Shown: positions 6,993 to 37,260 of the stretch, one piece after another
Layout: each line of letters opens with the position of its first letter
How positions within the stretch are numbered: the stretch's first letter is position 1
DNA from: Candidatus Desantisbacteria bacterium CG1_02_49_89
Lineage (GTDB): Bacteria; Desantisbacteria; UBA1551
Direction: 5' to 3'
NCBI GenBank assembly: GCA_001871075.1
Contig: MNUP01000075.1
Span: 1 to 39,162 of the forward strand
DNA length: 39,162 nt
The notes under the pieces: generated by a model
Databases searched by the model: none
Seen by the model: the letters and a program-made list of their open reading frames with translations, nothing else
Told to the model about the DNA's origin: nothing
Position numbers and translations under genes: made by a program

Positions 6993-7101
6993 TCCCCCCT
7001 ACTTTCTTGCGAAAGTAACAGGGGGGACCTACACCCGCCAATATTCGTGGCGGGTTTCGGCACAGGGACCTACGCCCGCCAATAACCGTGGCGGGCTACG
7101 G
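6993..7101. repeat. Hairpin followed by two 37-nt direct repeats, each containing a CCCGCCA-N8-TGGCGGG palindrome
   Basis: Hairpin 6993-7027; repeats at 7024-7060 and 7065-7101. Confidence 0.85.
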
Positions 7102-7169
7102 TCGGGATTAAGCTGCTGGGGTCTGCGTCTCTGGGTTCATAAGTGTGGTTTTTAAGTGTAGTTTTTCCC

Positions 7170-7197
7170 TTGACTTTTTCTTATGTTTTGATATAAT
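7170..7197 (+). promoter_or_regulatory. Putative sigma70 promoter for secG
   Basis: TTGACT-16 nt-TATAAT with an extended -10 TG; SD GGGAGG before ATG 7232. Confidence 0.65.
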
Positions 7198-7231
7198 ATA
7201 GTTTAAAAAATATATTATATGGGAGGATAAC

Positions 7232-7549
7232 ATGCTAATTTTTATTCTGGTATTGTTCATCCTTTCCTGCATAGTGCTGATTTTTTCGGTTATGCTCCAG
7301 ACAGGCCACGGAGGAATTGGGGACGTTTTCGGAGGCAGCGGGGAGCGGGCGCTTTTCGGCGGGACAGGTGCAAAGGGTTTGGTCGTCAAGATCACTATAA
7401 TTTCGGCGGTTGTGTTTTTTGCAACATCCCTGATCCTATCAGTGCTGTATTCAAGGCAGGGCAGGGTTAGCACCGCACCTCAGGTTCCGGTCGAGCAGCC
7501 GGTTGCGCATGTTGGCGGTTCAACGACTGCAATACCGCAGGGTCAGTAG
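7232..7549 (+). CDS. secG: Preprotein translocase subunit SecG
   Basis: Two TM helices separated by LQTGHGGIGDVFGG..LFGG. Confidence 0.9.
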   Translation: MLIFILVLFILSCIVLIFSVMLQTGHGGIGDVFGGSGERALFGGTGAKGLVVKITIISAVVFFATSLILSVLYSRQGRVSTAPQVPVEQPVAHVGGSTTAIPQGQ

Positions 7550-7556
7550 TGTCTAA

Positions 7557-9194
7557 ATGAGACTCAAGAAAAGGGCCAAAACAAAAGGGACCTGTATTCT
7601 TTTTCTTTGCCTGTTTTTAGCAGGAGGATGCGCAAAAAAAACAGTCAGGGATTCATCCGAAGAAGCAGGGGCGTTTTCATACGGCGATGCGCTGGTTACG
7701 CCTTCCATAGCGGACGCGATCCAGTTAAACCCTGTTCTTTGCGCGGACAGTTCTTCCGGGGATATTGTGGGCCTTTTGTTCAACGGGCTTGTGAAATATG
7801 ATAAAGACATAAAGCTTACCGGTGATCTCGCCCAGTCCTGGAAGGTTACCGAGGGCGGCCTGGTCATAACGTTCTATCTGAGAAAAGGGGTCAGGTGGCA
7901 TGACGGCAGGGAATTCACCAGCGAAGACGTTAAATTCACTTACGAGCGCCTTATCGACCCAAAGGTAAAGACGCCTTTTTCAAGCGATTTTGAAAGAGTA
8001 AAAAGCCTGGAAACACCGGATAAATACACGGTGGTGGTCACATACAAGGAGCCGTTTGCCCCGGGGCTTGCAAGCTGGGGCATGGGGATCGTTCCGAAGC
8101 ATCTTTTTGAAAAAGGCGATTTTAACACGAATCCATGCAACAGGCGCCCCGTAGGCACAGGGCCCTATATTTTTAAAAAATGGGTTACGGATGAAAAAAT
8201 AGAGCTTGAGGCAAATCCTGATTATTTTGAGGGGAAGCCGTTTATCTCTAAATACATATACAGGATAATATCCGACCAGAGCGTTCAGCTTTCAGAGCTT
8301 GAGAAAGGCACTGTTGACTACATGGGGTTGAACTCCTTTCAATATTCGACCGAGAGCCGGACCCTGCCGGAAAAATACCAGATAAACGTTTTCCGCTATC
8401 CCTCGATCAATTCCTACACCTATCTTGGTTACAATATCGAGAGCCCTTTTTTCAAAGATGTGAAAGTAAGGCAGGCCCTTGCCTGCGCGATAAATAAGAA
8501 GGATATGATCAAGGGCGTTATACAGGGATTTGGAAAGCCGATCACGGGTCCTTACCCGCCCGCGTTCTGGGCTTACAACAACCAGGCAAGGGAATACGCG
8601 TATAATCCTGACAAAGCCCGCAGGGCGCTGGAATCCCTGGGATGGAAGGATAGTGACGGTGACGGCATCCTGGAGAAAAACGGGATCCCTTTCAGGTTCA
8701 CGCTTATAACCAACCAGGGCAATAAAGAAAGAGAATTGTGCGCGACCATCATACAGGAAGATTTCAAAAAGATCGGCATAGATGTCAGCATCAGGATACT
8801 TGAGTGGAGCACCTTCCTGCAGGAATACGTCAATAAAAAGAAATTTGACGCCCTTATACTCGGGTGGAACCTGAGCCTGGACCCGGACCAGTATTCGATG
8901 TGGCATTCAAGCCAGATCGAGAAAGGGTATAACTTCGTATCTTATAAAAACAAGGAAGTCGACAGGCTTCTTGAAGAAGGCAGGAAAATATTCGATCAGG
9001 GAAAAAGAAAAAAGATCTATAACAGGATCCATGCTGTTCTGGCGGAAGAGCAGCCCTACAGCTTTCTGTATGTCAGGGATTCATTCCCGGTCATCCATAA
9101 AAGGTTCAGGGGCATTAAGGTCGAACCTGCGGGCATAGAATATAATTTCGTAAAGTGGTACGTGCCCAGATCTGAGCAGAGGTACGCTCAGTAG
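7557..9194 (+). CDS. ABC transporter peptide/nickel-binding lipoprotein (family 5, AppA-like)
   Basis: Lipobox-like LAGGC, LRKGVRWHDG, PVGTGPY, VRQAL, DGDGILEK. Confidence 0.92.
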   Translation: MRLKKRAKTKGTCILFLCLFLAGGCAKKTVRDSSEEAGAFSYGDALVTPSIADAIQLNPVLCADSSSGDIVGLLFNGLVKYDKDIKLTGDLAQSWKVTEGGLVITFYLRKGVRWHDGREFTSEDVKFTYERLIDPKVKTPFSSDFERVKSLETPDKYTVVVTYKEPFAPGLASWGMGIVPKHLFEKGDFNTNPCNRRPVGTGPYIFKKWVTDEKIELEANPDYFEGKPFISKYIYRIISDQSVQLSELEKGTVDYMGLNSFQYSTESRTLPEKYQINVFRYPSINSYTYLGYNIESPFFKDVKVRQALACAINKKDMIKGVIQGFGKPITGPYPPAFWAYNNQAREYAYNPDKARRALESLGWKDSDGDGILEKNGIPFRFTLITNQGNKERELCATIIQEDFKKIGIDVSIRILEWSTFLQEYVNKKKFDALILGWNLSLDPDQYSMWHSSQIEKGYNFVSYKNKEVDRLLEEGRKIFDQGKRKKIYNRIHAVLAEEQPYSFLYVRDSFPVIHKRFRGIKVEPAGIEYNFVKWYVPRSEQRYAQ

Positions 9195-9203
9195 GAGAGT
9201 TTT

Positions 9204-10431: not shown

Positions 10432-10542
10432 ATGGCAAGAAGCAAGTCCAAGCAGCAAAGGAAGAGGCATATTTTCGCCCTCAAGAGAAAGATGAAAGCA
10501 GAAAGAAAGATGATAAGGGGAATAGAGGCGAGCAAAGCGTAA
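10432..10542 (+). CDS. Small basic protein, 36 aa (MARSKSKQQRKRHIFALKRKMKAERKMIRGIEASKA)
   Basis: SD GGAGG at 10423-10427; fills the hflX-leuS gap; below the ORF-track size cutoff. Confidence 0.7.
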   Translation: MARSKSKQQRKRHIFALKRKMKAERKMIRGIEASKA

Positions 10543-10554
10543 GCATCGGGAGAC

Positions 10555-13044
10555 ATGATGGGCAGCACCGAAGAAACTGACGTCTATCCTTTTAGGCTTG
10601 CAGAAGCCAGGTGGCAGAAATACTGGGATGAACAGGGCCTTTATAATACAAAGACCGATGCTTCAAGAAAAAAGTATTATGTCCTGGAAATGTTCCCGTA
10701 TCCTTCGGCAAAACTGCATGTGGGGCATATGCGCCCTTATTCCATAACCGACGCGATAGCCAGGTTCAAGATAATGCAGGGTTATAACGTGCTGCACCCG
10801 ATCGGCTATGATTCTTTCGGTATGCCCGCTGAAATAGCCGCCGTTGAAAGAAATATCCATCCTTTCGAGTGGACCAGGAAGTGCATAGAAACCATACGCG
10901 GGCAGTTCAGGCGGCTGGGTTATTCTTACGACTGGCGCAGGGAAGTCATCACATGCGATCCCGGATATTACAGGTGGAGCCAGTATTTCTTTTTAAAAAT
11001 GTTTGAAAAGGGCCTTGCGTACAGGAAAAAATCTCCCGCAAACTGGTGCCCGAAATGCAGCACGGTCCTCGCGAACGAGCAGGTAATAGACGGCCGGTGC
11101 TGGAGATGCGGTTCTACCGTCATCCAGAACGAGCTTGAACAATGGTTTTTAAGAATAACATCTTATGCTGACAGGCTCCTTGATTTTTCAAACCTGAACG
11201 ACTGGCCCGAAAGGGTCCTGCTGATGCAGAAAAACTGGATAGGGAGAAGCGAAGGAGTCGAGATCAAATTCAGTGTCCAGTGTCCAGTGTCCAGTGTCCA
11301 GCTGAAAAATAAAGATCTAATGGTATTCACTACAAGGCCGGACACAATTTTCGGAGCAACATATGTCGTGCTTTCGGCCGGCCATCCGCTTGTCAGCGAT
11401 ATCCTTAAGATCAGCGAGAACAGTTTATTAAAGGATTTTATTGCAAGAACAGGGTCAAAGGATATAACAGTAACCACCATGATAGATATGGAAAAAGAGG
11501 GTGTTTTTACGGGTTTTTATGCTATAAATCCCGTAAATAGGGAAAAAATACCTATCTGGATAGCAAATTACGTTCTTATGGGATATGGAACCGGAGCGAT
11601 AATGGCGGTTCCCACCCATGACCAGAGAGATTTTGAGTTCGCTAAAAAATATAACCTGCCGATGAGAATTGTTATCCAGGATCCAGGATCCAGCATCCAG
11701 GATCCAGCAGAAATGAAGGAGGCTTATGAGGGCGAGGGAACGCTGGTGAATTCCGGACAGTTCAACGGTATACCGAACCTGCAGGCAATAGAAAAGATAT
11801 CGGACTGGATGGAAAAGGAAAAAATGGGCAGCAGGCAGGTCAACTACCGCCTGCGCGACTGGTGCATTTCACGCCAAAGATACTGGGGCACCCCGATACC
11901 CGTAATATATTGTAAAAAATGCGGTATGGTCCCGGTGCCTGAAAAAGATCTTCCGGTCAGGCTGCCTGAAAAGATCAATATCACGGGTAAGGGCAGTTCT
12001 CCTCTTGCCAGAGCGGAGGATTTCGTTAAATGCAGCTGCCCGAAATGCGGCGGGAGCGCGGAAAGGGAGACAGATACCATGGATACGTTTATCTGCTCAT
12101 CCTGGTATTTTTTACGCTACACCAGCGTTAATTCTGATGACGCCGCATTCCATAAAGAGGATTCGGATTACTGGATGCCGGTGGACCAGTATGTCGGCGG
12201 GGTAGAACATGCCATACTGCATCTTCTTTATTCAAGATTTTTTGTCAAATTCTTAAAAGATATCGGGGAAGTAAAGTGCGAAGAGCCTTTTGTGAACCTG
12301 CTCGCGCACGGAATGGTCGTAAAAGACGGCGCAAAAATATCAAAGTCAAAAGGCAACATTGTTGATCCGGATATTATTATCGACAGATACGGAGCCGATG
12401 TCATGCGCCTGTTCATGCTTTTTGCCGCTCCTCCTGAGCCGGACCTCGAATGGAACGATGAGGGAATAGAAGGCGCAAGCAGGTTTTTAAACAGGGTTTG
12501 GAGGCTTGTAAAGCAGTATCCAGTGTCCCGCCCAGCAAGATTGGCGGGCAAGCCCAGTATCCAGTGTCCAGCAGAAAACGACAAAAAGATACAGAGAAAA
12601 CTGCAACAGACGATAAAAAAAGTAACGGAAGACCTGGAGAGGTTTCATTTCAATACGGCGATCGCAAGCCTGATGGAAATGACTAATCTGATAGGCCAGT
12701 CTCCGTCAAAAGAAGTTCTTGAAAAAATAATCCTGCTGCTCGCGCCGTTCGTCCCGCATTTTAGCGAGGAATGCTGGGCGGTCCTTGGCAACAAACCCAG
12801 CATTTTCGGTATACCCTGGCCGGGTTACGACAAAGACGCCATCAGGGAAGAGGAATCTTTGATAATAGTCCAGGTTGACGGTAAGCTAAGGGATAGGGTG
12901 CCTGTTCCCGCAGGCGCCGTGGAGGAAGACGTAAGGAAGATCGTCCTGGCGCGTGAAAAGGTCAGCAGGTGGCTTGAAAACAGAAAGATCGCGAATATTG
13001 TATTTATCAAAGACAAGCTTCTGAACATAGTAACGTCACAATGA
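10555..13044 (+). CDS. leuS: Leucine--tRNA ligase
   Basis: MFPYPS..LHVGH, FTTRPDT, GTGAIMAVPTHDQRD, DWCISRQRYWG, KISKSKGN; contains three repeat-derived in-frame patches. Confidence 0.98.
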   Translation: MMGSTEETDVYPFRLAEARWQKYWDEQGLYNTKTDASRKKYYVLEMFPYPSAKLHVGHMRPYSITDAIARFKIMQGYNVLHPIGYDSFGMPAEIAAVERNIHPFEWTRKCIETIRGQFRRLGYSYDWRREVITCDPGYYRWSQYFFLKMFEKGLAYRKKSPANWCPKCSTVLANEQVIDGRCWRCGSTVIQNELEQWFLRITSYADRLLDFSNLNDWPERVLLMQKNWIGRSEGVEIKFSVQCPVSSVQLKNKDLMVFTTRPDTIFGATYVVLSAGHPLVSDILKISENSLLKDFIARTGSKDITVTTMIDMEKEGVFTGFYAINPVNREKIPIWIANYVLMGYGTGAIMAVPTHDQRDFEFAKKYNLPMRIVIQDPGSSIQDPAEMKEAYEGEGTLVNSGQFNGIPNLQAIEKISDWMEKEKMGSRQVNYRLRDWCISRQRYWGTPIPVIYCKKCGMVPVPEKDLPVRLPEKINITGKGSSPLARAEDFVKCSCPKCGGSAERETDTMDTFICSSWYFLRYTSVNSDDAAFHKEDSDYWMPVDQYVGGVEHAILHLLYSRFFVKFLKDIGEVKCEEPFVNLLAHGMVVKDGAKISKSKGNIVDPDIIIDRYGADVMRLFMLFAAPPEPDLEWNDEGIEGASRFLNRVWRLVKQYPVSRPARLAGKPSIQCPAENDKKIQRKLQQTIKKVTEDLERFHFNTAIASLMEMTNLIGQSPSKEVLEKIILLLAPFVPHFSEECWAVLGNKPSIFGIPWPGYDKDAIREEESLIIVQVDGKLRDRVPVPAGAVEEDVRKIVLAREKVSRWLENRKIANIVFIKDKLLNIVTSQ
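11271..11301 (+). repeat. Intragenic heptamer array (CAGTGTC)x4 in leuS
   Basis: Perfect tandem; translates as SVQCPVSSVQ. Confidence 0.92.
11674..11708 (+). repeat. Intragenic heptamer array (ATCCAGS)x5 in leuS
   Basis: ATCCAGG ATCCAGG ATCCAGC ATCCAGG ATCCAGC; translates as IQDPGSSIQDPA. Confidence 0.92.
12514..12571 (+). repeat. Intragenic heptamer array CAGTRTC interrupted by a 27-nt hairpin in leuS
   Basis: CAGTATC CAGTGTC [12528-12554] CAGTATC CAGTGTC CAG. Confidence 0.88.
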
Positions 13045-13628
13045 ACATTTGCGGGCTCTGCCTGGTCGCAGGCGGTTACATTCTTGGGTCAGTATCCCCT
13101 TCATATATTTTCTATAGGAAAAAAAGAGGAGGGGATATTAGGGAAGCAGGAGACGGGAATCCGGGGGCTGCCAATGTAGCGGCATCGTTCGGCAGCGCGC
13201 CCGGTTTTATTATTGCTTTCCTGGATTACTGTAAGGGCATAATTCCTGTATTTGCGGCAAGGATGCTGGGTGTCGGGGATTTTTACCTTATCCTGACAGG
13301 AATAGCAACCGTTGCAGGTCATGATTATTCGATATTTTTGAAATTTAAAGGGGGGAAAGGGACAATGACGTCTCTGGGCGTCCTTTCTTTCTTCCTTCCG
13401 TTTGAGACTGTTCTTGCTTTTTCTGCATGGCTTTTGCTGCATTTCGGTTTAAAGACCAGGTTTATAGGCGCGGTTATAACATTCCTGCTCGTTCCTTTTT
13501 TTACCTGGCTTATTTCCTGCAGGCTGGTCGGGGAGCCTTTGTATTATATCCTGCTCCCTCTTGGCATTCTTGCCCTGTTTTTAACGAGGATGACCGAGAA
13601 TATAGGCAGTTTTTTTAAAAAAAGTTGA
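13041..13628 (+). CDS. plsY: Glycerol-3-phosphate acyltransferase PlsY family
   Basis: YILGS, DIREAGDGNPGAANV, DYCKG, GHDYSIFLKFKGGKG. Confidence 0.88.
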   Translation: MNICGLCLVAGGYILGSVSPSYIFYRKKRGGDIREAGDGNPGAANVAASFGSAPGFIIAFLDYCKGIIPVFAARMLGVGDFYLILTGIATVAGHDYSIFLKFKGGKGTMTSLGVLSFFLPFETVLAFSAWLLLHFGLKTRFIGAVITFLLVPFFTWLISCRLVGEPLYYILLPLGILALFLTRMTENIGSFFKKS

Positions 13629-13637
13629 GGTCATCCG

Positions 13638-16715: not shown

Positions 16716-17980
16716 ACATAACGGAGAAGATACTTTCGGCGCACTGCGGGAGAAGGAATGTAAGCCCGGGCGAATTCATAGAGGCGGATGTTGACCTTGC
16801 TCTGGGCAATGATATTACCGCGCCCCTTGCGATAATGGAGTTTAATAAACTTGGCCTGAAGCGGGTGTTTGACAGGAACAGGATCGTGCTTGTTTCCGAC
16901 CATTTCATTCCCGCCAAAGATATCAAAAGCGCAGGCCAGGCAAGGATGCTGAAGGATTTTTCGGAGAAACACGGCATAAAACGTTATTTTGAGCTTGGAA
17001 GGATGGGGGTGGAGCACGCACTCCTTCCCGAGCAGGGGTTTGTCAGTCCGGGAAACCTTATAATCGGCGCGGATTCCCATACCTGCACATACGGGGCGCT
17101 CGGGGCTTTTTCCACTGGCGTTGGCAGCACTGATCTTGCCGCGGTATTCGCAACAGGAAAGATATGGCTGAAGATCCCGGAAAGCATCAGGTTCATATAC
17201 CGGGGCAGGGCAGGGAAGTGGGTAGGCGGCAAGGACTTTATACTCTTTACGATCGCAAAAATAGGGGTTGACGGCGCGTCATACTGTGCGATGGAATTCA
17301 CAGGTGAGGCAATATCGTCTCTGGGAATGTCAGACAGGCTTGCGATGTGCAATATGGCGATTGAAGCTGGAGGGAAGAACGGGATTGTTCCGCCTGACAT
17401 GACTACTTTGAAATATCTTAACAAATTGAAAATTGTAAATTGTAAATTGAAAATTGTAAATTTAGGGAGCGATAAAGACGCAAAATATAAAAAGACAATA
17501 GAGATAGACGCGGCGAAGATAAGGCCGTTCGTGGCGTGCCCGCCGCTGCCTTCAAGAGGCAAACCCGCGGATGAGCTGGGAAAGGTAAAAATAGACCAGG
17601 CGTTCGTAGGTTCGTGCACGAACGGCAGGATAGAGGACCTGCGCCTGGCAGCATCGGTGCTTAGAGGGCGTAAGGTAAAGAGCGGAGTCCGTTTTATTGT
17701 AAGCCCTGCCACGCAGGCAATGTACCTGCAAGCCCTGAAAGAAGGCCTGCTCGAGCTTTTCACAAAAGCAGGAGGGACCGTTTGCACGCCAAGCTGCGGA
17801 CCCTGCCTTGGAGGCCACTGCGGGGTGCTGGGGGCAGGAGAGGTCTGTATTGCGACAACGAACAGGAATTTCATAGGCAGGATGGGAGACCTGAAAAGCA
17901 GCGTATACCTGGCTAACGCGGCTGTTGTCGCGGCTTCCGCGATCAAGGGCCGAATAACAAGCCCGGCAGAAATAATTTAG
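16712..17980 (+). CDS. leuC: 3-isopropylmalate dehydratase large subunit
   Basis: TEKIL, DH, GADSHTCTYGALG, GSCTNGR, CGPCLG, TNRNFIGRMG. Confidence 0.95.
   Translation: MNITEKILSAHCGRRNVSPGEFIEADVDLALGNDITAPLAIMEFNKLGLKRVFDRNRIVLVSDHFIPAKDIKSAGQARMLKDFSEKHGIKRYFELGRMGVEHALLPEQGFVSPGNLIIGADSHTCTYGALGAFSTGVGSTDLAAVFATGKIWLKIPESIRFIYRGRAGKWVGGKDFILFTIAKIGVDGASYCAMEFTGEAISSLGMSDRLAMCNMAIEAGGKNGIVPPDMTTLKYLNKLKIVNCKLKIVNLGSDKDAKYKKTIEIDAAKIRPFVACPPLPSRGKPADELGKVKIDQAFVGSCTNGRIEDLRLAASVLRGRKVKSGVRFIVSPATQAMYLQALKEGLLELFTKAGGTVCTPSCGPCLGGHCGVLGAGEVCIATTNRNFIGRMGDLKSSVYLANAAVVAASAIKGRITSPAEII
17423..17464 (+). repeat. Intragenic heptamer array (AAATTGW)x6 in leuC
   Basis: 42 nt, last unit degenerate; translates as KLKIVNCKLKIVNL. 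Confidence 0.92.
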
Positions 17981-18096
17981 CCACTGAATCCACTGAACAC
18001 ACTGAGTTTTGTAACTCAGGGCTTCAGCCCTGATATCAAACCTAAAGGTTTGAGTTACAGTAAAAAATTCTCAGTGAACTCAGTGTCCTCAGTGGC
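17980..18096. repeat. Inverted 3x9-mer brackets enclosing a REP-like double hairpin
   Basis: CACTGA at 17982/17991/18000; TCAGTG at 18071/18080/18089; TGTAACTCA...TGAGTTACA at 18010-18059. Confidence 0.9.
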
Positions 18097-18108
18097 AAAA
18101 GGATTGTA

Positions 18109-18645
18109 ATGAAGATCAGGGGAAGGGCGTGGAAATTTGGGGATAACGTTAATACTGACGAGATAATACCCGCGAAATATCTCAACATCTCAGACGCGGA
18201 AGAGCTGGCAAAGCACTGCATGGCAGGCATAGACCAGGGATTCTGCGCAAGGGTCAGAAAGGGAGATATTATTATCGCGGGCAGGAATTTCGGGTGCGGC
18301 TCCTCCAGGGAGCACGCCCCTCTTTCCATTAAGGCCTGCGGCGTATCCTGCGTGATAGCCAGGTCTTTTGCCCGCATATTCTTCAGGAACAGCATAAACA
18401 TAGGGCTTCCCATACTTGAATGCAGGGAAGCGGATAAAATAAAGCAGGGCGACACGGTTTCCATAGACCTTGCAAAAGGCGTTATCGAGGATCTGACAAG
18501 AAAGAAGATCTACGAGACAGCGCCTTTTCCGGCTTTCATGCAGGGCATTGTGGATGCAGGCGGGCTTATGAATTATACGGCAAAAAAAATGCAAAAGTCA
18601 AATTGCAAATTGTCCCTAAGGGATTCCCGCATCTTGTCCAGATAG
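18109..18645 (+). CDS. leuD: 3-isopropylmalate dehydratase small subunit
   Basis: GDNVNTDEIIPA, NFGCGSSREHA, SFARIFFRN; C-terminal tail is repeat-derived. Confidence 0.95.
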   Translation: MKIRGRAWKFGDNVNTDEIIPAKYLNISDAEELAKHCMAGIDQGFCARVRKGDIIIAGRNFGCGSSREHAPLSIKACGVSCVIARSFARIFFRNSINIGLPILECREADKIKQGDTVSIDLAKGVIEDLTRKKIYETAPFPAFMQGIVDAGGLMNYTAKKMQKSNCKLSLRDSRILSR

Positions 18646-18719
18646 GTAATCGGGACTGCGGGAATAAAAGTCAAATTTTTACAAATTTAATATTTGCAAT
18701 TTAAAATTTGAAATTTGAA
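18588..18719. repeat. Heptamer arrays with nested hairpins at the leuD-pilD junction
   Basis: AATGCAA AAGTCAA ATTGCAA; hairpins 18613-18665; (ATTTRNW)x5 at 18685-18719. Confidence 0.8.
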
Positions 18720-19490
18720 ATGAATATTTTGTATGGAGTGATCGTATTCGTGTTCGGGCTGACAATAGGGAGTTTCCTTAACGTCTGCATATACAGGATG
18801 CCCAGGGGAGAATCTATTGTTTCGCCCGGTTCACACTGCCCGGACTGCAATCATCCGCTGGGCGTGTGGGACCTTATACCCCTGATAAGCTTTATCGCTC
18901 TGGGCATGAAGTGCAGGTACTGTAAAAAAGAAATTTCGCCAAGATATTTTTTCGTAGAGCTGGGAACAGGGGTGATGTTTCTCGCGGTTTTCGCCAGGTT
19001 CTTCATATATGAGAATAACCCTCTGGCTTTTGTTTCGTACCTGGTGCTGTGCAGCGCCCTTATCGTTATAACTTTCATTGACCTGGAACATAAAATAATA
19101 CCTGACAAGATAACGTATCCCGGGATGATAGCAGGAATATTCATAAGCATTTTTACGCGTTCGTTCCTGCCTTCGGTGCTCGGGCTGCTGATAGGCGGGG
19201 GCATACTGCTTTTTATCGTGGTTGTATCCAGGGGAGGGATGGGCGGAGGGGACGTGAAGCTTGCCGCAATGCTGGGAGCGTTCCTGGGCTGGAAGCTTAT
19301 ATTTCTCAATCTTTTTCTTGCGTTCCTTCTGGGCGGAATAGCCGCGGTGATACTTCTTATTATGAAAAAGAAGGGCAGGAAAGATTATATACCGTTCGGC
19401 CCGTACCTTGCGATCGCGGGGATGATCACGGTTTTCTGGGGAGACCGTTTACTTTCGATCTTTTTACCATTTCTGGCGCAAACGCATTAA
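18720..19490 (+). CDS. pilD: Type IV prepilin peptidase
   Basis: GSFLNVCIYRMP, two CxxC motifs, IDLEH, GMGGGDVKL, IPFGPYL. Confidence 0.95.
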   Translation: MNILYGVIVFVFGLTIGSFLNVCIYRMPRGESIVSPGSHCPDCNHPLGVWDLIPLISFIALGMKCRYCKKEISPRYFFVELGTGVMFLAVFARFFIYENNPLAFVSYLVLCSALIVITFIDLEHKIIPDKITYPGMIAGIFISIFTRSFLPSVLGLLIGGGILLFIVVVSRGGMGGGDVKLAAMLGAFLGWKLIFLNLFLAFLLGGIAAVILLIMKKKGRKDYIPFGPYLAIAGMITVFWGDRLLSIFLPFLAQTH

Positions 19491-20653: not shown

Positions 20654-20655
20654 CC

Positions 20656-20805
20656 TGTCATTGCGACTTCGCCCCGATTACCATCGGGGTGAGGAAGCAA
20701 TCTAATGTTAAGAAGGGATGTTACGTTTTGTAGGGGCGTGATTCATCACTCCCGAGATGTAGCGGTGCCTGCCCGCCAGTCAGTTTGGTGGGCGATTTAT
20801 CGCAC
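20656..20805. repeat. Cluster of palindromic REP-like elements at the left edge of the AT-rich island
   Basis: TGTCATTGCGA...GAAGCAATCT with an internal hairpin (20656-20703); GTAG-headed hairpins at 20730-20753 and 20759-20805. Confidence 0.8.
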
Positions 20806-20814
20806 GTTTCCTCC

Positions 20815-20877
20815 AATAGAGCACTGGGTTATCACCAGATAGAGATTTGTTCACCCCTGGAGGTGATTGAGTCATGA
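20815..20877 (+). pseudogene. 3' remnant of a probable PIN-domain toxin gene
   Basis: Reads NRALGYHQIEICSPLEVIES*, resembling C-termini of a PIN subfamily; stop overlaps the next ATG; no plausible start, REP-like hairpins lie directly upstream. Confidence 0.55.
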
Positions 20878-23668: not shown

Positions 23669-23707
23669 GCATAAATTCTAATAGGAAGAAGTAAATAAAA
23701 TATTAAA

Positions 23708-23736
23708 ATCTGTGGTTATCTGTGAAAATCAGTGTC
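23708..23736. repeat. Lone 3x10-mer arm (ATCWGTG) at the right edge of the island
   Basis: Cores at 23708/23718/23728; same pattern as 27346-27374. Confidence 0.8.
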
Positions 23737-23746
23737 AATATCTCTT

Positions 23747-26028: not shown

Positions 26029-26049
26029 ACAAAAATTATTAAAAATTCA

Positions 26050-26086
26050 CCCTCACCTTATTCCTCTCCCGTCCAAGGGAGAGGAA
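26050..26086. repeat. CCCTCACC...TTCCTCTCCC-N6-GGGAGAGGAA hairpin repeat
   Basis: 10-bp perfect stem; related copy at 35683-35734. Confidence 0.75.
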
Positions 26087-26113
26087 CAGGATGGAAATTA
26101 GAAGGGATAAAAA

Positions 26114-26695: not shown

Positions 26696-26703
26696 TAAAT
26701 ACA

Positions 26704-26768
26704 GTGTCAACGTATCAGAGTTTTAAAATATAATCACCGTAATCATCTTATATAATCACCGTAATCAT
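26704..26768. repeat. Octamer pair followed by a 19-nt direct repeat ATATAATCACCGTAATCAT
   Basis: GTGTCAAC GTATCAGA; repeats at 26728 and 26750. Confidence 0.85.
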
Positions 26769-26785
26769 TTTTAACAGGGGGAAAT

Positions 26786-27277: not shown

Positions 27278-27286
27278 AATAATTTA

Positions 27287-27374
27287 GACACTGATTTTCA
27301 CTGATTAACACTGATGTTTGATTTTGCTGCAACATATTCATGCCTATCTGTGAAAATCCGTGCAAATCTGTGTC
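27287..27374. repeat. Inverted 3x10-mer brackets between accB and accC
   Basis: CACTGAT at 27289/27299/27309; ATCYGTG at 27346/27356/27366. Confidence 0.88.
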
Positions 27375-27385
27375 AAAAGGGTTTT

Positions 27386-29676: not shown

Positions 29677-29889
29677 ATGGGTGAAGAGATCAAGTTCAAT
29701 TTTAGAAGCGGGAGGGCAGCCGGCGCCCTTATAGGGTTTGCGATCGGTATACTGGTGCTCTTCTGGGTATTCCTCTGGAAGATCATATTACTGATCATTA
29801 TCGTTCTTGCGGGTTACTGTATAGGCAGGATCGTTGATAACAAGAGGAACGGGACAGTCATAGACGTTGGCCCCGGCAGGAAAGAATAA
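29677..29889 (+). CDS. DUF2273-like small membrane protein
   Basis: GALIGFAIGIL..WK..LLI..GYCIGR..D; synteny with asp23-amaP. Confidence 0.7.
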   Translation: MGEEIKFNFRSGRAAGALIGFAIGILVLFWVFLWKIILLIIIVLAGYCIGRIVDNKRNGTVIDVGPGRKE

Positions 29890-29895
29890 AAGCCC

Positions 29896-30315
29896 ATGGC
29901 GGACAGGGGGGTTGCGCGGATTATTGATGCCAATGTCAACAGGTGCCTTGAAGGCCTCAGGGTGATAGAAGATGCCGCAAGGTTCATCCTGGATGACAGC
30001 CGCATTACCGCGCGCCTTAAGAAGGTACGCCACGACACAAAGGACGCGGTAAAGAATTTGCAAGATGAGAGTGAGCTTCTGCTATCAAGAGATTCAGGGA
30101 AGGACGTCGGAGCGAAAAGCTTTACCGCAAGCGAGTCCCGCCGGAACAGCGTTGATGACATCCTCAGGGCGAATTTCAGGCGTGTTGAAGAATCATACAG
30201 GGTGCTTGAAGAATACACAAAGCTCATTGATCCGCCGCATTCCGTATGTTTCAAGAACCTGCGTTTCAGGACATACAGCCTTGAAAAAGCTATTTTCATA
30301 AAGCGCGGGATTTAG
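29896..30315 (+). CDS. Stand-alone ThiE N-terminal (ThiD2-like) helical domain
   Basis: RIIDANVNRCLEGLRVIED, RD..DVG, ANFRRVEESYRVLEE, RFRTYSLEK. Confidence 0.85.
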   Translation: MADRGVARIIDANVNRCLEGLRVIEDAARFILDDSRITARLKKVRHDTKDAVKNLQDESELLLSRDSGKDVGAKSFTASESRRNSVDDILRANFRRVEESYRVLEEYTKLIDPPHSVCFKNLRFRTYSLEKAIFIKRGI

Positions 30316-30323
30316 GGAAGGAT

Positions 30324-32150: not shown

Positions 32151-32162
32151 AAGGAATCCCTG

Positions 32163-32197
32163 AACCGGCTAACCGGAGAACCAGTTAACCGGCAAAC
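32163..32197. repeat. Octamer array (AACCRGNN)x4
   Basis: AACCGGCT AACCGGAG AACCAGTT AACCGGCA AAC. Confidence 0.8.
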
Positions 32198-32208
32198 AAA
32201 GTAATCAT

Positions 32209-32236
32209 ATTATATACTTTCTTTTTAAAATGTCAA
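32209..32236 (-). promoter_or_regulatory. Putative sigma70 promoter for the PBP1A gene
   Basis: Minus strand TTGACA-16 nt-TATAAT, about 60 nt upstream of the start. Confidence 0.7.
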
Positions 32237-32246
32237 TTATAAAGAT

Positions 32247-32282
32247 GATTACGGTGATTTAAAAAAACGATTACAGTGATTA
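32247..32282. repeat. Paired GATTACRGTGATT motif
   Basis: Copies at 32247 and 32269; reverse complement of the motifs at 26728 and 37225. Confidence 0.82.
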
Positions 32283-32312
32283 ATGCTGTAAATAAACATA
32301 TCCGAGGAGCAA

Positions 32313-33526: not shown

Positions 33527-33970
33527 ATGCCAAGAAAGCTTATTATCCTGACAGTTTTCGGCGCGGCAATGGGCTGGTGGGAAGGGGTTGTCGTTGTTTA
33601 TATCAGGAAGATCCTTCAGTTAAGCATTCCTGACCTTACCCGGATGGTTATGGGGCAGGTCCCGCGCGACCTTCTTTCGATAGAAATGACAAGAGAGGCA
33701 GCCACTATAATAATGCTTGTTGCGGTTGCCCTGATGCTTGAGAAAAATTGGTGGCGCAGGCTGGCTGTGTTCTTGTGGGTGTTCGCGGTATGGGACCTGG
33801 TTTATTATGCCGCCCTCAAAGTATTAATAGGCTGGCCGCCTTCTTTTGCCACAATAGACTGCCTTTTCCTGATCCCTGCTCCATGGATCGCGCCGGTTTG
33901 GGTGCCGGTCCTTACAATGGCGGGTTTCCTTGTGTTTTCAGGCTGGTTGTTCCTTAAAATAAAAGAATAA
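33527..33970 (+). CDS. Hypothetical integral membrane protein
   Basis: About four TMs; E..VVVY.R, REAATIIML, WDLVYY, FLIP.PW..PVW.P. Confidence 0.8.
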   Translation: MPRKLIILTVFGAAMGWWEGVVVVYIRKILQLSIPDLTRMVMGQVPRDLLSIEMTREAATIIMLVAVALMLEKNWWRRLAVFLWVFAVWDLVYYAALKVLIGWPPSFATIDCLFLIPAPWIAPVWVPVLTMAGFLVFSGWLFLKIKE

Positions 33971-34130
33971 TTATGAATTATGAGTTATGAGTTATGAATC
34001 AACTGCAAGGGTGTTTATTGTCCCAAAGGGACCCCTTCGGGGTAACTCAGGGCTTTAGCCCTGATTCATAATTTTGCCTTTCGGGCAACATTCTCGTGTG
34101 GTTTTGCAGAATGTTTTCGAATTCCATAAT
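33970..34130. repeat. Composite repeat: (RTTATGA)x4, REP-like palindrome with a nested 22-nt insert, further hairpins
   Basis: Heptamers 33970-33997; insert 34021-34042; TCAGGGCTTTAGCCCTGA 34047-34064; hairpins 34074-34116. Confidence 0.85.
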
Positions 34131-34148
34131 TTTATTTAAGGAGAAACA

Positions 34149-35021
34149 ATGCTTCAGAGTATGACAGGTTACGGGTATTGCAGGACAGGCAAAGAGGGGG
34201 TTTCGTTTTTCATAGAAATAAAATCCCTGAATTCAAAATTTCTTGACATATTCCTGAAGCTGCCGGAAGGAATGACGTTCCTTGAGGACAGGATAAAAGA
34301 GGTTATCCAGCAGAAGTTTGACAGGGGGCGGATAAGCCTTTCGATCATCGAAGAGCAGTACAGCGGTAAGGTCCTGTCGGTAGACATAGCGCAGGCAAGG
34401 AAGTATCATAATGCCTTTAAAAAGCTTAAGGAGAAACTTGATATTTCAGGAGAGATCGATATCGGATTATTCCGTGACATTCCGCATATTTTCAGGACGG
34501 GAAAAGAAGGATATTCGCTGTCCGTAATATGGCCGGCGCTCAAAAAAGGCATTGAAAAAGCAGTACTCATGCTCGAAGTTTCAAGGAACAAAGAGGGCAG
34601 GAAAATACAGCGCGCGCTCGCAAAACACGCCGCGGGTATTTCGGCGGCAGTCCTGAAAATAGAGGAGCACGCGCCCGAGGCCGTAAAATTCCACAAGGAG
34701 AAGCTCGAGCATACCCTGAAAGAATTTCTGCCCGAGCTTAACCTGAACAGCCCCAGGCTTGTGGAAGAGCTGACCCTGTTCGCAAGCCGGGTGGACATAA
34801 GCGAGGAGATGATGCGCCTTAAGGCGCACCTGCAGTCCTTCCTTGGCACCCTGGAACTTTCCGGGTCTGTCGGCAGGCGGCTTGATTTTATCGCCCAGGA
34901 AATGTCAAGGGAGATAAACACGCTTTCTTCAAAAGCCAACAGCTACGCTGTTTCGTCGCAGTCGGTCCTGGTAAAAGAAGAACTGGAAAAGATAAGGGAA
35001 CAGGTGCAGAATGTCGAATAA
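34149..35021 (+). CDS. yicC: YicC/YloC family endoribonuclease
   Basis: MLQSMTGYG, EIKSLN, DISEE..RL..H, GRRLDFIAQEMSREINTLSSK, IREQVQNVE. Confidence 0.95.
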   Translation: MLQSMTGYGYCRTGKEGVSFFIEIKSLNSKFLDIFLKLPEGMTFLEDRIKEVIQQKFDRGRISLSIIEEQYSGKVLSVDIAQARKYHNAFKKLKEKLDISGEIDIGLFRDIPHIFRTGKEGYSLSVIWPALKKGIEKAVLMLEVSRNKEGRKIQRALAKHAAGISAAVLKIEEHAPEAVKFHKEKLEHTLKEFLPELNLNSPRLVEELTLFASRVDISEEMMRLKAHLQSFLGTLELSGSVGRRLDFIAQEMSREINTLSSKANSYAVSSQSVLVKEELEKIREQVQNVE

Positions 35022-35062
35022 TTTTAAATTTAAAATTTTAAATTTTCAATTTGCAATTTAAA
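35021..35062. repeat. Heptamer array (ATTTNNA)x6 filling the yicC-gmk spacer
   Basis: ATTTTAA ATTTAAA ATTTTAA ATTTTCA ATTTGCA ATTTAAA, then ATG. Confidence 0.85.
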
Positions 35063-35647
35063 ATGAAAAAGACAGCAGACAGAAAAAAACAACTAGGAAA
35101 AATATTCGTGATATCGGCTCCTTCCGGAACCGGCAAGACCACGCTGGCAGACATACTGCTTAGATCGCGCCGGGGTTTTGTCCGGTCTGTTTCCTATACC
35201 ACGCGAAGACCCAGGGGGAATGAAAGGAACGGCAGGGATTATCAATTTATAAGCAGAGCTGACTTTTTAAAAAAGATAAATAAAAGCTTTTTCGCGGAAT
35301 GGGCTAAGGTGTATACCAACTATTATGGGACAAGCAAAGAATTCCTTGGTTGCGCTTTAAAGAGCGGTAAAAATGTTATGCTCGTTATAGATACCCAGGG
35401 CGGGTTCCAGATACACAGGATTTTTCCCAGGTCAGTCCTGATCTTCATAGCTCCCCCTTCTTTTAAAGAGCTTAAAAGGCGGCTCGCGGGAAGGGGAACA
35501 GAAAAAAGCGGCAGCATGGCAAAGAGGCTTGCCAAAGCAAGAAAAGAGATACGCGAAAGCAGGCAGTATGACCATGTTGTAATCAACGACAACTTGAAAG
35601 AAGCGTCATTTCAGCTTAAAAAAATAGTAACCAGTTATTTAAAATAA
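35063..35647 (+). CDS. gmk: Guanylate kinase
   Basis: SAPSGTGKTT, SYTTRRPRGNERNGRDYQF, NYYGTS, FIAPPS. Confidence 0.96.
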   Translation: MKKTADRKKQLGKIFVISAPSGTGKTTLADILLRSRRGFVRSVSYTTRRPRGNERNGRDYQFISRADFLKKINKSFFAEWAKVYTNYYGTSKEFLGCALKSGKNVMLVIDTQGGFQIHRIFPRSVLIFIAPPSFKELKRRLAGRGTEKSGSMAKRLAKARKEIRESRQYDHVVINDNLKEASFQLKKIVTSYLK

Positions 35648-35653
35648 TTTTCT

Positions 35654-35806
35654 ACTTGGCACCGGATACTGGTCACTGAGATCCCCCTCGCCCCGCCCTC
35701 TCCCTCAAGGGGAGAGGATTAAGGAGAGGGTGAGATTTGATTGGTTTTGTTAATTGTATTTTGATATTTTTACTGGATACTTGACACTGGTCACTGGACA
35801 CTGTAT
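35654..35806. repeat. ACTGGAY-type heptamer arrays flanking a CCTCTCCC/GGGAGAGG hairpin
   Basis: Arrays at 35654-35681 and 35772-35806 (reverse complement of the leuS CAGTRTC unit); hairpin 35683-35734. Confidence 0.8.
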
Positions 35807-35822
35807 TTAAAAGGAGGGTAAT

Positions 35823-36011
35823 TTGGAAAAAGAAAAAGTGCTTGTCGACAATATCTTGAACAGGACCGAGGACAGGTACACCCTGATAAACCTTGCCGCG
35901 AAAAGAGCAAAGGTAATTGTTGAATCCAATGACAATATGAAAATGACAGAAGCAATAAACAGGACGATCGAAGAGATCAGAGAAGGCAAATTAAGGGTAA
36001 AAACCGCTTAA
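35823..36011 (+). CDS. rpoZ: RNA polymerase omega subunit
   Basis: DRYTLINLAAKRA, EEIREGK; SD AAGGAGG; follows gmk. Confidence 0.85.
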   Translation: MEKEKVLVDNILNRTEDRYTLINLAAKRAKVIVESNDNMKMTEAINRTIEEIREGKLRVKTA

Positions 36012-36024
36012 AGGGGGAGGCAAA

Positions 36025-37140
36025 ATGAAGGTGAATAGCGGTAATTTGAGATCACTCAATACCAGGTTCAAGGGTTACCTTGAAGGCAAAAAGATCGATG
36101 AGTTCATGGAAACATTCAAGATAAATTTTGCCGCCGGTCACTGGTGCGCCGGGGGATTCACTGACAGGTTCGCTTCCGGCGGGTATAATCCCGGGCTGGA
36201 TGACTCTATAACGGCGCAGATCGAAAGGGTCGCAGAAGCCGGGGTCAAGGGCATAGAATTCCACGAACAGGTTTTTATAGATGAAAATTACCGTAAGGAT
36301 CCTTCCAAGATATCAGAAGTGAAAGACGCGCTTAAAAAGTTCAAGCTGGTCCCTACGAATATGAACACCAACCTTTTCACCGACCCTAAATGGAAGCTGG
36401 GAGGGGTTACTAACGTGAACAAAGCGATCCGCGAAGATGCTATGGCAGTGGCGCTGCAGGGCGTTGAGATCGCCAGAGAGGTTGGGTGTTCCAGCGTGGC
36501 GCTGTGGCCGGGTTCTGACGGATGGGACTACAATTTTGAGGTAAACTACGGCGGAATCCTTGAAAGGTTCATAAAGGCCTGCGTTAAGATAAACAGGAAA
36601 GCCAAGAGCCTGGGGCTTAGGTTCGGTATTGAGGCAAAGCTCCATGAGCCGCGCGAAGGGAATATGGTCATTCCCACTACACACCTTGCCGCAATGGTAG
36701 CAAGGGAAGTAAACGAGGTATGCGGGGGCAGGAACATGGGTGTTGCCGTTGATTACGGTCACGAACAGATGTATGCGGTTGACCCGGGATTCACTCTTTA
36801 CGCGGTCCAAAGGCTTGGGGTGCAGGTAGTGAACTTCCACCTGAACAACGCAAAGGTGCATTCAAACGACGAGGACCGCGTTGCGGGAACAGGGGATAAC
36901 TGGAGGCTCGCGGATTTCTGTTACGCCGCGATCGATACGGGTTACAGCGGGTGGTTCGGTGAGGACCAGTTCACTTACCGCCTGGAGCCGATAAAGGCGA
37001 TGTCACTTTCAAGGGAATTATTCGCCAATGTTATGAAAAAAGCGCTTATGATATACGCCCGGAAGGATGAGCTTGAAAAGGCGCGCGCGACAGGGGACGC
37101 GGGCAGAGTGATCGACGTTGTCAAGAAAATCCTAGTATAA
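36025..37140 (+). CDS. Xylose/L-rhamnose isomerase-like TIM-barrel sugar isomerase
   Basis: IEFHE, TNLF, WPGSDG, IEAKLHEPR, DYGHE, FHLN, DED, EDQ. Confidence 0.85.
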   Translation: MKVNSGNLRSLNTRFKGYLEGKKIDEFMETFKINFAAGHWCAGGFTDRFASGGYNPGLDDSITAQIERVAEAGVKGIEFHEQVFIDENYRKDPSKISEVKDALKKFKLVPTNMNTNLFTDPKWKLGGVTNVNKAIREDAMAVALQGVEIAREVGCSSVALWPGSDGWDYNFEVNYGGILERFIKACVKINRKAKSLGLRFGIEAKLHEPREGNMVIPTTHLAAMVAREVNEVCGGRNMGVAVDYGHEQMYAVDPGFTLYAVQRLGVQVVNFHLNNAKVHSNDEDRVAGTGDNWRLADFCYAAIDTGYSGWFGEDQFTYRLEPIKAMSLSRELFANVMKKALMIYARKDELEKARATGDAGRVIDVVKKILV

Positions 37141-37144
37141 ACTG

Positions 37145-37260
37145 CGTGTCAACGTATCAGCGTATCAACGTGTCAGAGCAACAGCAAGGAGTTTTATTGT
37201 AACTCAGGGCTTTAGCCCTGATAGATAATCACCGTAATCTCATTTATAATCACTGTAATC
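37145..37260. repeat. Composite repeat: octamer x4, REP-like palindrome, TAATCACYGTAATC pair
   Basis: CGTGTCAA CGTATCAG CGTATCAA CGTGTCAG; GTAACTCAGGGCTTTAGCCCTGA at 37199; pair at 37225/37246. Confidence 0.85.

Follow-up and report, generated by a model that had tools for sequence, protein, structure and literature searches.

Nested micro-repeats of three kinds at the gene junctions and in the protein loops of a Candidatus Desantisbacteria genome

Contig MNUP01000075.1 of Candidatus Desantisbacteria bacterium CG1_02_49_89, analysed here over positions 1-39162 (the window; G000:C29:1-39162 in our numbering), carries a row of genes, nearly all on the plus strand and of a housekeeping kind, whose junctions and in places whose reading frames are occupied by short nested repeats. 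These repeats are the subject of the present work. The window begins with the 3' end of a 23S rRNA gene and a 5S rRNA gene, the only Rfam matches in it, so that no family was assigned to the repeats, and ARAGORN found no tRNA. The genes identified by Pfam are, in order, queA, an SBP_bac_5 protein, hflX, leuS, plsY, and two glycosyltransferases; the large and small subunits of an aconitase-family enzyme and a prepilin peptidase; aroC, a ThaI-type restriction-modification pair, aroK, and aroD; an M24 peptidase, efp, accB, accC, Asp23, and ThiD2; and a class A penicillin-binding protein (PBP) on the minus strand, followed by tyrS, yicC, gmk, and an AP_endonuc_2 protein. Among the 30 window open reading frames (ORFs) scanned, four had no Pfam family and none was a transposase or integrase, as an earlier sequence-only reading of the window had held. 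That reading had also named six types of module, namely tandem 7-mer arrays, 8-mer arrays, inverted 9/10-mer brackets, a paired motif containing GATTAC, palindromes headed GTAA or GTAG that recall repetitive extragenic palindromic (REP) sequences and their inverted doublets (REPINs), and GC-rich hairpins; all six were recovered where it had placed them or close by (Table 1).

Table 1. Repeat modules and composite repeat loci of the 39,162-nucleotide (nt) window
Feature	Position	Strand	Remarks
7-mer arrays	11271-11301, 11674-11707, 17423-17462, 18683-18721, 33969-33999, 35020-35064, 35772-35803		
8-mer arrays	32163-32197, 37144-37176		weaker: 15136-15155, 23571-23595
Inverted 9/10-mer brackets	17981-18005 with 18070-18094; 27288-27315 with 27345-27377		
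Paired GATTAC motif	26731-26766 (+), 32247-32282 (-), 37226-37260 (+)		
GTAA/GTAG-headed palindromes	18011-18058, 34042-34064, 37199-37221		GTAG-headed within 20654-20860
GC hairpins	7033-7055, 7074-7096, 20672-20689, 26063-26084, 35697-35717		
queA-downstream spacer	6993..7231	+	C7/G7 hairpin; 13-mer repeated twice; fold z = -2.55
Tandem 41-nt units x2, queA-downstream spacer	7024-7060, 7065-7101		each with CCCGCC..GGCGGG hairpin
CAGTGTC x4.4 array, in frame in leuS	11271..11301	+	encodes SVQCPVSSVQ
ATCCAGG x4.9 array, in frame in leuS (IQDPGSSIQDPA)	11674..11707	+	variable stretch, no net length gain
Two direct CAGTATCCAGTGTCC array pieces in leuS flanking a GC-rich stretch	12513..12578	+	region about 15 aa longer than in the relative G001
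AAATTGW array (21-nt period x1.9), in frame in aconitase-family large subunit (KLKIVNCKLKIVN)	17423..17462	+	
Nested element, spacer of aconitase large- and small-subunit genes	17981..18108	+	array-armed palindrome; fold dG -51.5 kcal/mol, z = -6.7
REPIN doublet GTAACTCA-GGGC..GCCC-TGA / TCA-AACC..GGTT-TGAGTTAC	18011-18058		inside inverted 9-mer arrays 17981-18005 and 18070-18094
AAATTGC array and GTCCCTAAGGGA hairpin, then AAATTTG array into prepilin-peptidase ORF start	18585..18721	+	
Cluster of GC hairpins and GTAG-headed palindromes	20654..20860	+	left edge of 3.08-kb aroC-aroK insertion
10-mer array pieces (ATCTGTGNNN)	23705..23741	+	right edge of aroC-aroK insertion; inverted relative to 27282-27318
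CCTCTCC..GGAGAGG hairpin, pepP-efp spacer	26045..26095	+	family of 44 copies genome-wide; G001 spacer without hairpin
Short CAGTGTC/AACGTATC array piece, then GATTAC pair 26731-26744 + 26753-26766	26696..26785	+	20 nt before accB start; z = +1.7
accB-accC spacer, hairpin with 10-mer-array arms	27278..27385	+	array-armed palindrome; z = -2.3
Divergent PBP/tyrS spacer	32151..32312	.	AACCGGNT 8-mer array 32163-32197; GATTAC pair 32247-32282 (-)
Sigma-70-like promoter, 12/12 match	32236..32209	-	within PBP/tyrS spacer
AATTATG array across stop codon, core ATCAACTGCAAGGG, GTCCCAAAGGGA hairpin, GTAAC REP 34042-34064, then a further recurring module	33969..34148	+	
AAATTTW heptamer array over yicC stop and gmk start	35020..35064	+	
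Direct ACTGGNC array pieces around CCTCTCCC..GGGAGAGG hairpin	35648..35810	+	upstream of likely rpoZ
8-mer array 37144-37176, core AGCAACAGCAAGGA, GTAAC REP 37199-37221, GATTAC pair 37226-37260, next ORF	37141..37265	+	

The window belongs to a genome (G000) of 2.48 Mb in 150 contigs with 48.9% G+C, throughout which the same modules recur. Arrays were located with Tandem Repeats Finder (TRF) against control genomes simulated at Markov order 1, 3, and 5, and coding and intergenic DNA were separated with our own greedy-ORF proxy map (1943 ORFs, 86% coding) and not with a gene caller. TRF returned 1043, 530, 413, and 330 rows of period 7, 8, 9, and 10, against 36-52, 45-71, 51-72, and 78-85 in the simulated genomes, an enrichment in keeping with the sequence-only reading. 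The density of period-7 rows is 42 per 100 kb, while sampled stretches of other genomes held 10 in 52 kb, 2 in 60 kb, 2 in 36 kb, and 4 in 24 kb, and a sampled stretch of G001, the sole other genome of the phylum in the collection searched (same order, different family, 87% complete), held 5 in 81 kb. The proxy map places 608 of 1022 heptamer arrays between genes. Of 1411 spacers of at least 20 nt, 856 contain an array of period 6-12 and 1170 a 14-mer that occurs at least four times in the genome; such 14-mers cover 37.0% of intergenic and 2.3% of coding bases, or 178 kb in total, about 7% of the genome.

The arrays fall into approximately 190 classes of heptamer unit, besides 8-, 9-, and 10-mers, and the units are homogenised inside each array. 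Periods of 5 or less account for only 23 of 2787 collapsed arrays, and at period 7 the counts rise in an abrupt step. This step and the homogenisation of units are what would be expected of pure simple sequence repeat (SSR) dynamics, in which slippage favours units of about 7 nt, palindromes arise by fold-back or template switching, and only the REPs are mobile; over-representation of heptamers in bacteria and a hypothesis of slippage set by the polymerase footprint have both been published, according to the sections of PMC4692102 considered here. Array lengths, however, are peaked rather than geometric and show no decay, with a mode near 4.3 units for both period 7 (283 of 1022 arrays at 30-32 nt) and period 8 (113 of 511 at 33-35 nt). 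A CRISPR-like reading was rejected, the arrays having no unique spacers.

Some arrays are the arms of palindromes. Of 1627 arrays of at least 21 nt, 289 have an inverted partner no more than 300 nt away and at least 80% identical, against 6 in a reversed-only control, and a stricter search defined 140 array-armed palindromes with a median arm distance of 43 nt; two members lie in the window, in the aconitase and the accB-accC spacers. The arms are built from unit families that include AATTATG, AACGATG, ACGACGT, AGATCCT, and 9-mers such as AAACTCTGT. The commonest family has AATTATG/AGTTATG arms around the core ATCAACAGCAAGGA ... TCCTTG..TTGA, and this core is also joined to octamer arms of AACGTGTC/AGCGTATC. 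All 27 strict AATTATG copies begin with AATTATG and end with CATAATT, partly by construction of the search; 19 of the 27 have 4+4 units, their median length is 105 nt, and their flanks are unrelated. Two types of arm recur from copy to copy, one with AATGATG as the third unit and one with alternating AGTTATG. Because of the sharp ends, the 4+4 units, and the conserved arm variants, we read these palindromes as copied as units from a master, and at least for the AATTATG family the signature is that of master-copy spread and not of slippage at each locus. The same features at unrelated loci argue against pure SSR dynamics, as does the linking of arrays of differing units by one core, CAACAGCAAGGA.

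The second kind of repeat is the REP. The hairpin GTAACTCAGGGCTTYAGCCCTGA has 95 matches in the genome at two or fewer mismatches, the reversed pattern having none, and its anatomy is GTAAC-TCAGGGC-TTYA-GCCCTGA. The head is GTAA in this genome; the relative, with 172 copies of the GTAAC REP, has a GTAG head in 6 of its copies among the matches listed, and GTAGC variants occur there as well. Stem changes are compensated (GGAC/GTCC, AAGGC/GCCTT, GACC/GGTC), and only 9 of 108 copies found at four or fewer mismatches lie inside proxy ORFs. The REP is often paired with an inverted partner of the AACC..GGTT type, GTAACTCA and TGAGTTAC closing an outer stem in the manner of a REPIN doublet; the aconitase-spacer doublet folds as two hairpins closed in this way. 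Other GC-rich hairpins accompany the REPs: there are 1022 perfect 7-bp hairpins, where a Markov-3 genome gives 325, and eight of the 1022 lie in the window; the main stem families are GCCCTGA (80 copies), CGCCCCG (63), CCTCTCC (44), AGGGGGA (39), and CCCGCCA (35).

Candidate enzymes for these elements lie on other contigs. The genome has 10 matches to Y1_Tnp, and two 160-aa proteins encoded on contig C23 score 99.7 and 94.7 bits against NCBIfam NF047646, the equivalog for REP-associated tyrosine transposases (RAYTs), with a cut-off of 80. Among solved structures both are closest to E. coli TnpArep (4er8), with which the HLH and Y-x3-NP motifs align. Each of the two genes (C23:3769-4248 and C23:1743-2222, minus strand) stands between tandem GTAACTCA hairpins of opposite orientation, the type found in the window, which bears out the proposal of layered non-autonomous repeats served by enzymes elsewhere. 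On C111, another Y1 gene, of 181 aa, has hairpins of a different family at its flanks. Four further Y1 genes of 221-231 aa are bracketed by long inverted repeats (GGGGACGG.. or GGGACAG..), scattered solo copies of which also occur. These genes (on C13, C100, C38, and C114) stand between inverted repeats AAAGGGGACGGGTTC.. or ATAGGGACAGGCAC.., each with approximately 15-20 solo copies as counted by eye. On contig C3 of the relative, a GGGGACAGGCTAC palindrome without a gene lies at about 31960-32030, at the aconitase small-subunit/pilD junction.

The modules are nested, as had been proposed. Of 73 array-armed cores, 36 are followed within 45 nt by a GTAAC or ATAAC REP and 14 show just a plain, AT-rich loop, and therefore filled and unfilled states coexist among paralogous copies. 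Small hairpins such as GCCCCAAGGGGC lie within heptamer arrays, and in two window loci, one in leuS (12513-12578) and one upstream of the likely rpoZ (35648-35810), direct array halves surround hairpins. Of the empty cassette sites that had been suggested as an alternative, nothing cassette-like was seen.

Arrays also lie in frame inside genes. Counting only those that score at least 40 and lie at least 30 codons from either end of ORFs of at least 250 aa, we found 92 of period 7 and 30 of period 8, that is 122 in 85 ORFs, against 0 and 1 in codon-shuffled ORFs. Clear Pfam architecture was present in 18 of 20 sampled array-bearing ORFs, and the hosts include valyl-tRNA synthetase, the glycyl-tRNA synthetase beta subunit, PriA, topoisomerase I (TopA), UvrA, HypF, the V/A-ATPase A subunit, RnfC, phosphoglucomutase, and glycosidases, among others. 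In the leucyl-tRNA synthetase (LeuRS) of the window, SVQCPVSSVQ is an insert of 7-9 residues in a loop of the editing domain relative to 10 homologues, one of them from the same order, and the other two arrays fall in variable stretches. One loop of the aconitase-family large subunit carries the KLKIVNCKLKIVN array in the window gene, a composite repeat of about 60 residues (octamer arrays, GTAG REP, and GC hairpins) in a paralogue of the same genome, and a different insert of about 30 residues (GTAAC REP and 30-nt tandem hairpins) in the orthologue of the relative. Protein loops have thus been remodelled in the way the sequence-only reading proposed.

Unit families of 99 of the 122 arrays in ORFs are also found between genes. 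Since the unit length is not a multiple of three, all three frames are read within three units and only stop-free units survive in genes: AATTATG and AACTCAT, with 75 and 23 intergenic arrays, have stops on both strands and do not occur in ORFs. As a consequence of this filter, the repertoire inside genes resembles a filtered version of the intergenic one. In giant ORFs of 898-5272 aa (on C58, C21, C91, C116, and C49), a repeated domain carries sites of the form ...NPV[LI]T-[array]-ADTQTE, at which equivalent positions hold different heptamers (CTGGCCA, CGCTTAT, CGTTACA, GCTATCA); this pattern could be one of in-place turnover or of repeated insertion. Different units at equivalent sites, in these proteins and in the aconitase loop of three genes, count in favour of pure SSR dynamics; an array in frame in an essential gene, however, cannot gain single 7-nt units without a frameshift. 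Weighing these points with the array lengths and the sharp-ended palindromes, we regard slippage alone as an unlikely account of the arrays.

Repeats also affect the apparent ends of genes. The listed accC ORF begins 24 codons too early (27314-27385), inside the hairpin with 10-mer-array arms; both the Pfam match and the alignment with the relative begin at residue 25. Likewise, the last 19 or so codons of the aconitase small-subunit ORF (18585-18645) are encoded by repeat and have no counterpart in the relative.

The third kind of repeat is the paired 14-mer TAATCACYGTAATC, whose copies are spaced at 21-23 nt in 156 of 165 intervals. The pattern TAATCACCGTAATC has 387 matches at two or fewer mismatches, against 15 in a Markov-3 genome, and these group into 222 clusters: 76 single copies, 129 pairs, 15 triples, and 2 quadruples. 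Of the 222 clusters, 106 have a proxy gene start no more than 30 nt ahead and only 3 have one that close behind, and in divergent spacers two GATTAC pairs face outwards. Among 68 co-directional spacers that hold arrays together with a co-oriented cluster, 62 have all arrays on the stop side and the cluster on the start side, so that the similar order of modules noted in the window holds well beyond it. The accB-upstream locus (26696-26785) is unstructured, and upstream of the PBP gene the pair directly precedes a 12/12 match to TTGACA-16-TATAAT. At the efp-accB junction the relative has, on inspection, a stretch resembling TTGACT...TATATT at the position of the GATTAC pair. Because the pair is oriented, close to start codons, and unstructured, it is probably a promoter or operator module. 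The sequence-only reading had counted it among the mobile modules; its orientation, its place beside start codons, and its lack of structure set it apart from the hairpin elements. The pair itself as a -35/-10 promoter was rejected, as its two copies are alike and its hexamers unlike TTGACA.

The orientation of the GATTAC pair raises the question of whether the whole assemblage is a regulatory grammar kept for function and not selfish DNA, with the hairpins acting as signals for RNA 3' ends, processing, or stability and the pair as promoter or operator. The fixed order of stop codon, arrays, GATTAC, and start codon, the aim of the pair at the start codon, and the sigma-70 consensus just downstream of the pair before the PBP gene are all consistent with this, as are the compensatory changes in REP stems, the strong predicted fold of the aconitase-spacer element, and the orientation of GTAAC REPs, which run along the gene direction in 57 co-directional spacers and against it in 26. 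Against it, identical arrays also occur inside ORFs, no Rfam family was matched, and the modules differ between two genomes of one order: the GATTAC 14-mer occurs 334 times here and 0 times in the relative, and the AATTATG triple 260 times and 0 times. Orthologous junctions of the relative, moreover, work at 11-54 nt without these modules. We therefore hold functional selection on the whole set to be quite improbable. The narrower reading of the hairpins as intrinsic terminators was rejected, with 21 terminator-like sites where 23.1 were expected.

The relative allows the junctions to be compared directly, since window positions 9231-37140 are collinear with its contig C3; a search of the collection's contigs with LeuRS gave matches in distant phyla only. 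Several orthologous junctions are short and module-free in the relative and far longer here, which agrees with the claim that operon spacers have been remodelled: 85 nt against 17 nt for pepP-efp, 108 against 11 for accB-accC, 162 against 54 for PBP-tyrS, about 180 against about 15 for gmk-rpoZ, a 45-nt array against about 10 nt for yicC-gmk, and 3.08 kb against 35 nt for aroC-aroK. The relation also runs the other way. Between the aconitase large- and small-subunit genes both genomes have a filled junction, but with different hairpin families, and the ThiD2-PBP junction of the relative holds a GTAAC REP where this genome has 8 nt, so REPs occupy different orthologous junctions in the two genomes.

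Window positions 10500-20400 are present in 24 public groundwater or aquifer runs, in every case as (Logan) contigs, and in four runs aligned over 10500-30499 the contigs match with 0-1 differences, in support of the assembled sequence. Contigs of these runs end at arrays (11273/11300, 12529/12548, 17433/17453, and 18693), which implies that the words of these arrays are repeated elsewhere in the genome. No clean array-length variants were found at single-copy depth in the four runs, whose contigs drop rare variants. Contig joints such as 11299->12561 and 12553->27276 were rejected as deletion alleles and are instead other loci sharing modules, since other letters lie between the two sides or distant arrays are joined; small insertions and deletions at 26745-26751 and 21224/21225 point to paralogue pile-up, their depth being far above single copy. 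That the repeats are an artefact of assembling or binning a metagenome-assembled genome is suggested by its division into 150 contigs and by the breaking of public contigs at arrays. Nevertheless, we consider an artefact extremely unlikely: the arrays, at 20-45 nt, are shorter than a read, contigs that enter or span the loci come from four runs, of which three carry no flag as a possible source, the stretch is present in 24 runs, and the in-frame arrays leave long conserved ORFs open.

Based on these data, we put the probability at roughly 60% that the window is a sample of a load of small repeats that extends through the genome, is specific to the lineage, and consists of three layers, later shaped by selection. 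The first layer would consist of palindromes of 70-110 nt with arms of about four tandem 7-10-mers and an AT-rich loop, in many unit families, of which at least the AATTATG family would spread by copying of a master element and not by slippage from site to site. The second would comprise the GTAAC/GTAG REPs and REPINs and the other GC hairpins, mobilised in trans by HUH/Y1 RAYTs encoded on other contigs, which, after the published model, may move REPs as single-stranded hairpins. If the array-armed palindromes extrude as long hairpins, their loops and arrays may serve as landing sites for REPs, and the nesting would follow from the frequency with which REPs lie in first-layer loops or arrays. 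Slippage and concerted evolution may both homogenise and diversify the arm units, which would explain different units at equivalent sites. The third layer would be the paired 14-mer, a promoter- or operator-type module directed toward the next start codon. Selection would then let units with stops on both strands persist only between genes, and let stop-free units persist in frame in tolerant protein loops as 7- or 8-residue periodic peptides.

Several observations weigh against this three-layer reading. Most arrays are solitary, 1338 of 1627 being without a detectable inverted partner, which slippage would also predict, and the differing units at equivalent sites of the giant proteins and the aconitase loop fit in-place slippage at least as well as insertion. 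Inspection of the 14-nt flanks of the 27 AATTATG copies revealed no target-site duplication. No parent element was found for the first layer, and none of the 10 Y1 genes, which have other repeats at their flanks, could be linked to the array-armed palindromes, although no systematic search was made. A close orthologue of the C23 RAYTs was not found in the 87%-complete relative, where the best match is 28% identical despite the 172 REP copies. Neither a transposition event nor the empty and filled alleles envisaged by the sequence-only reading appeared in the four runs, whose contigs cannot exclude such alleles. Finally, the coding and intergenic figures depend on the ORF proxy.

A stronger form of the three-layer reading is possible but doubtful. 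It would make the tandem-armed palindromes a distinct and widespread class of non-autonomous element with a mobilising enzyme of its own, serving as landing pads for REPINs and as a regular source of 7-residue inserts. The Y1 transposases flanked by inverted repeats would then be the candidate mobilisers, and concerted evolution of the arms would account for the roughly 190 unit types. If this were so, the genome would be the richest case so far for working out the mechanism.

Some further features of the window concern its genes more than its repeats. Every gene except one lies on the plus strand while the cumulative GC skew climbs throughout, and genome-wide the strand bias is extreme, with 1301 of 1344 long proxy ORFs (local skew >0.03) co-oriented with the G-rich strand. 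The hflX-leuS spacer holds a small Lys/Arg-rich ORF at 10432-10539 (MARSKSKQQRKRH...), with a similar ORF at the same place in the relative; it probably encodes a genuine small, basic protein and does not belong to the repeats. The 580-nt "spacer" from a gene resembling monogalactosyldiacylglycerol synthase to the aconitase large subunit (16052-16624) appears by eye to be coding, its open frame, absent from the ORF list as a separate gene, beginning MFSKRDQIILLF... and possibly ComEA-like. The 3.08-kb aroC-aroK insertion (20654-23731) contains the hairpin cluster, a 57-aa ORF, a 123-aa ORF without a family, and, at 21337-23077, the ThaI-type restriction endonuclease with an N4/N6 methylase, a pair of low GC content (34-35%). 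In one run (X1), insertion contigs had depths of 32.4 and 27.6 against 62.4 and 61 for flanking contigs, and this depth of about half hints that the island is absent from some members of that population.

Bacterial genomes are generally thought to tolerate little repetitive DNA. In this 2.5-Mb genome nested micro-repeats make up about 7% of the whole and 37% of the intergenic DNA, with translated arrays in core enzymes that include three aminoacyl-tRNA synthetases, PriA, topoisomerase I, and UvrA. There are practical consequences as well. The repeats break short-read assemblies and shift the starts and ends of ORFs, as for accC and the aconitase small subunit, and gene calling for such lineages therefore needs to be repeat-aware.

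The closest known system for the second layer is the superfamily of GTAG-tagged REPs and REPINs with their RAYTs (Di Nocera 2013, PMC3733652; Bertels & Rainey 2011, PMC3116915). The parts of PMC3733652 compared here also put on record REPs within coding regions, including those of replication and repair genes, and tyrosine transposases between long inverted repeats, which the other inverted-repeat-flanked Y1 genes of this genome resemble. The likeness extends to short palindromes with a conserved 5' head in about 100 mostly intergenic copies, to inverted doublets that fold, to RAYT genes flanked by their own REPs, and to a HUH/Y1 transposase of the RAYT clade. Unlike in GTAG REPs, the head in this genome is GTAAC and the REPs lie mostly inside another layer of repeats. 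The host also differs in belonging to a candidate phylum with two genomes in the collection, and the relative has its many REPs with no close RAYT orthologue found.

For the first layer, Elhai reportedly described in 2008 small dispersed repeats of Nostoc in which palindromes are nested in heptamer repeats. Heptameric SSRs of Nostoc and Xanthomonas, including convergent inverted pairs, are treated by Rehm 2015 (PMC4692102), which in the sections considered states that no detailed study of the origin of heptamer repeats existed. The present arrays share with these short tandemly repeated repetitive (STRR) sequences a large excess of intergenic tandem heptamers, some of them in inverted pairs able to form hairpins. 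They differ in having approximately 190 heptamer classes together with 8-, 9-, and 10-mers rather than a few units, in the peak at about four units, in the master-copy signature of at least one family, and in at least 92 strong heptamer arrays in frame in long ORFs; unlike the cyanobacterial hosts of STRR sequences, the kin of this genome in the collection are not cyanobacterial. The question of heptamer origin becomes testable in one genome, where one family shows the master-copy signature, paralogous copies are both filled and unfilled, and two of the three layers are missing from a syntenic relative.

Rickettsia palindromic elements are in-frame repeats within genes, and the arrays described here resemble them in that the reading frame continues across them, in loops of conserved essential proteins that tolerate insertions. 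They differ in that most are tandem arrays of 21-45 nt that give 7- or 8-residue periodic peptides, with composites of up to about 60 aa, and in that one aconitase-family loop was hit in three separate genes. The AATTATG palindromes have the small size, inverted arms, defined ends, dispersal, and non-coding nature of miniature inverted-repeat transposable elements, but their arms are internally tandem, no target-site duplication was seen, and no parent insertion sequence with matching ends was found, no systematic search having been made.

A link to Ssn, its SRM pattern, and GIY-YIG genes was not supported. The published Ssn SRM pattern (PMC11893778) matched 10 times, no more often than in three simulations (8-10 matches), with no match inside the window, and the seven stand-alone GIY-YIG genes of 82-114 aa (on C122, C81, C55, C47, C74, and C142) stand beside tRNA genes or fragments and not beside window-type modules. 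Of the gene kinds that had been proposed as neighbours of the modules, RAYT genes thus do adjoin them, on C23, and the small GIY-YIG genes do not. No paper on such repeats in this lineage was found in the literature, the titles and abstracts of 27 papers on or mentioning the phylum being silent about repeats and the supplementary tables of intragenic REPs and of Ssn lying outside the comparison.

To these known systems the present analysis adds controlled genome-wide counts, the link of the window REPs to RAYTs, evidence of master-copy spread, the stop-codon filter, the oriented GATTAC pair with its rule of order, and a syntenic comparison with the relative. Each ingredient has a precedent, and what the genome presents is a combination, extreme and specific to the lineage, of small repeats of known kinds and not a wholly new system, one that unites three strands usually treated separately: REPs with their RAYTs, heptamers of the STRR type, and selfish DNA in frame within genes.

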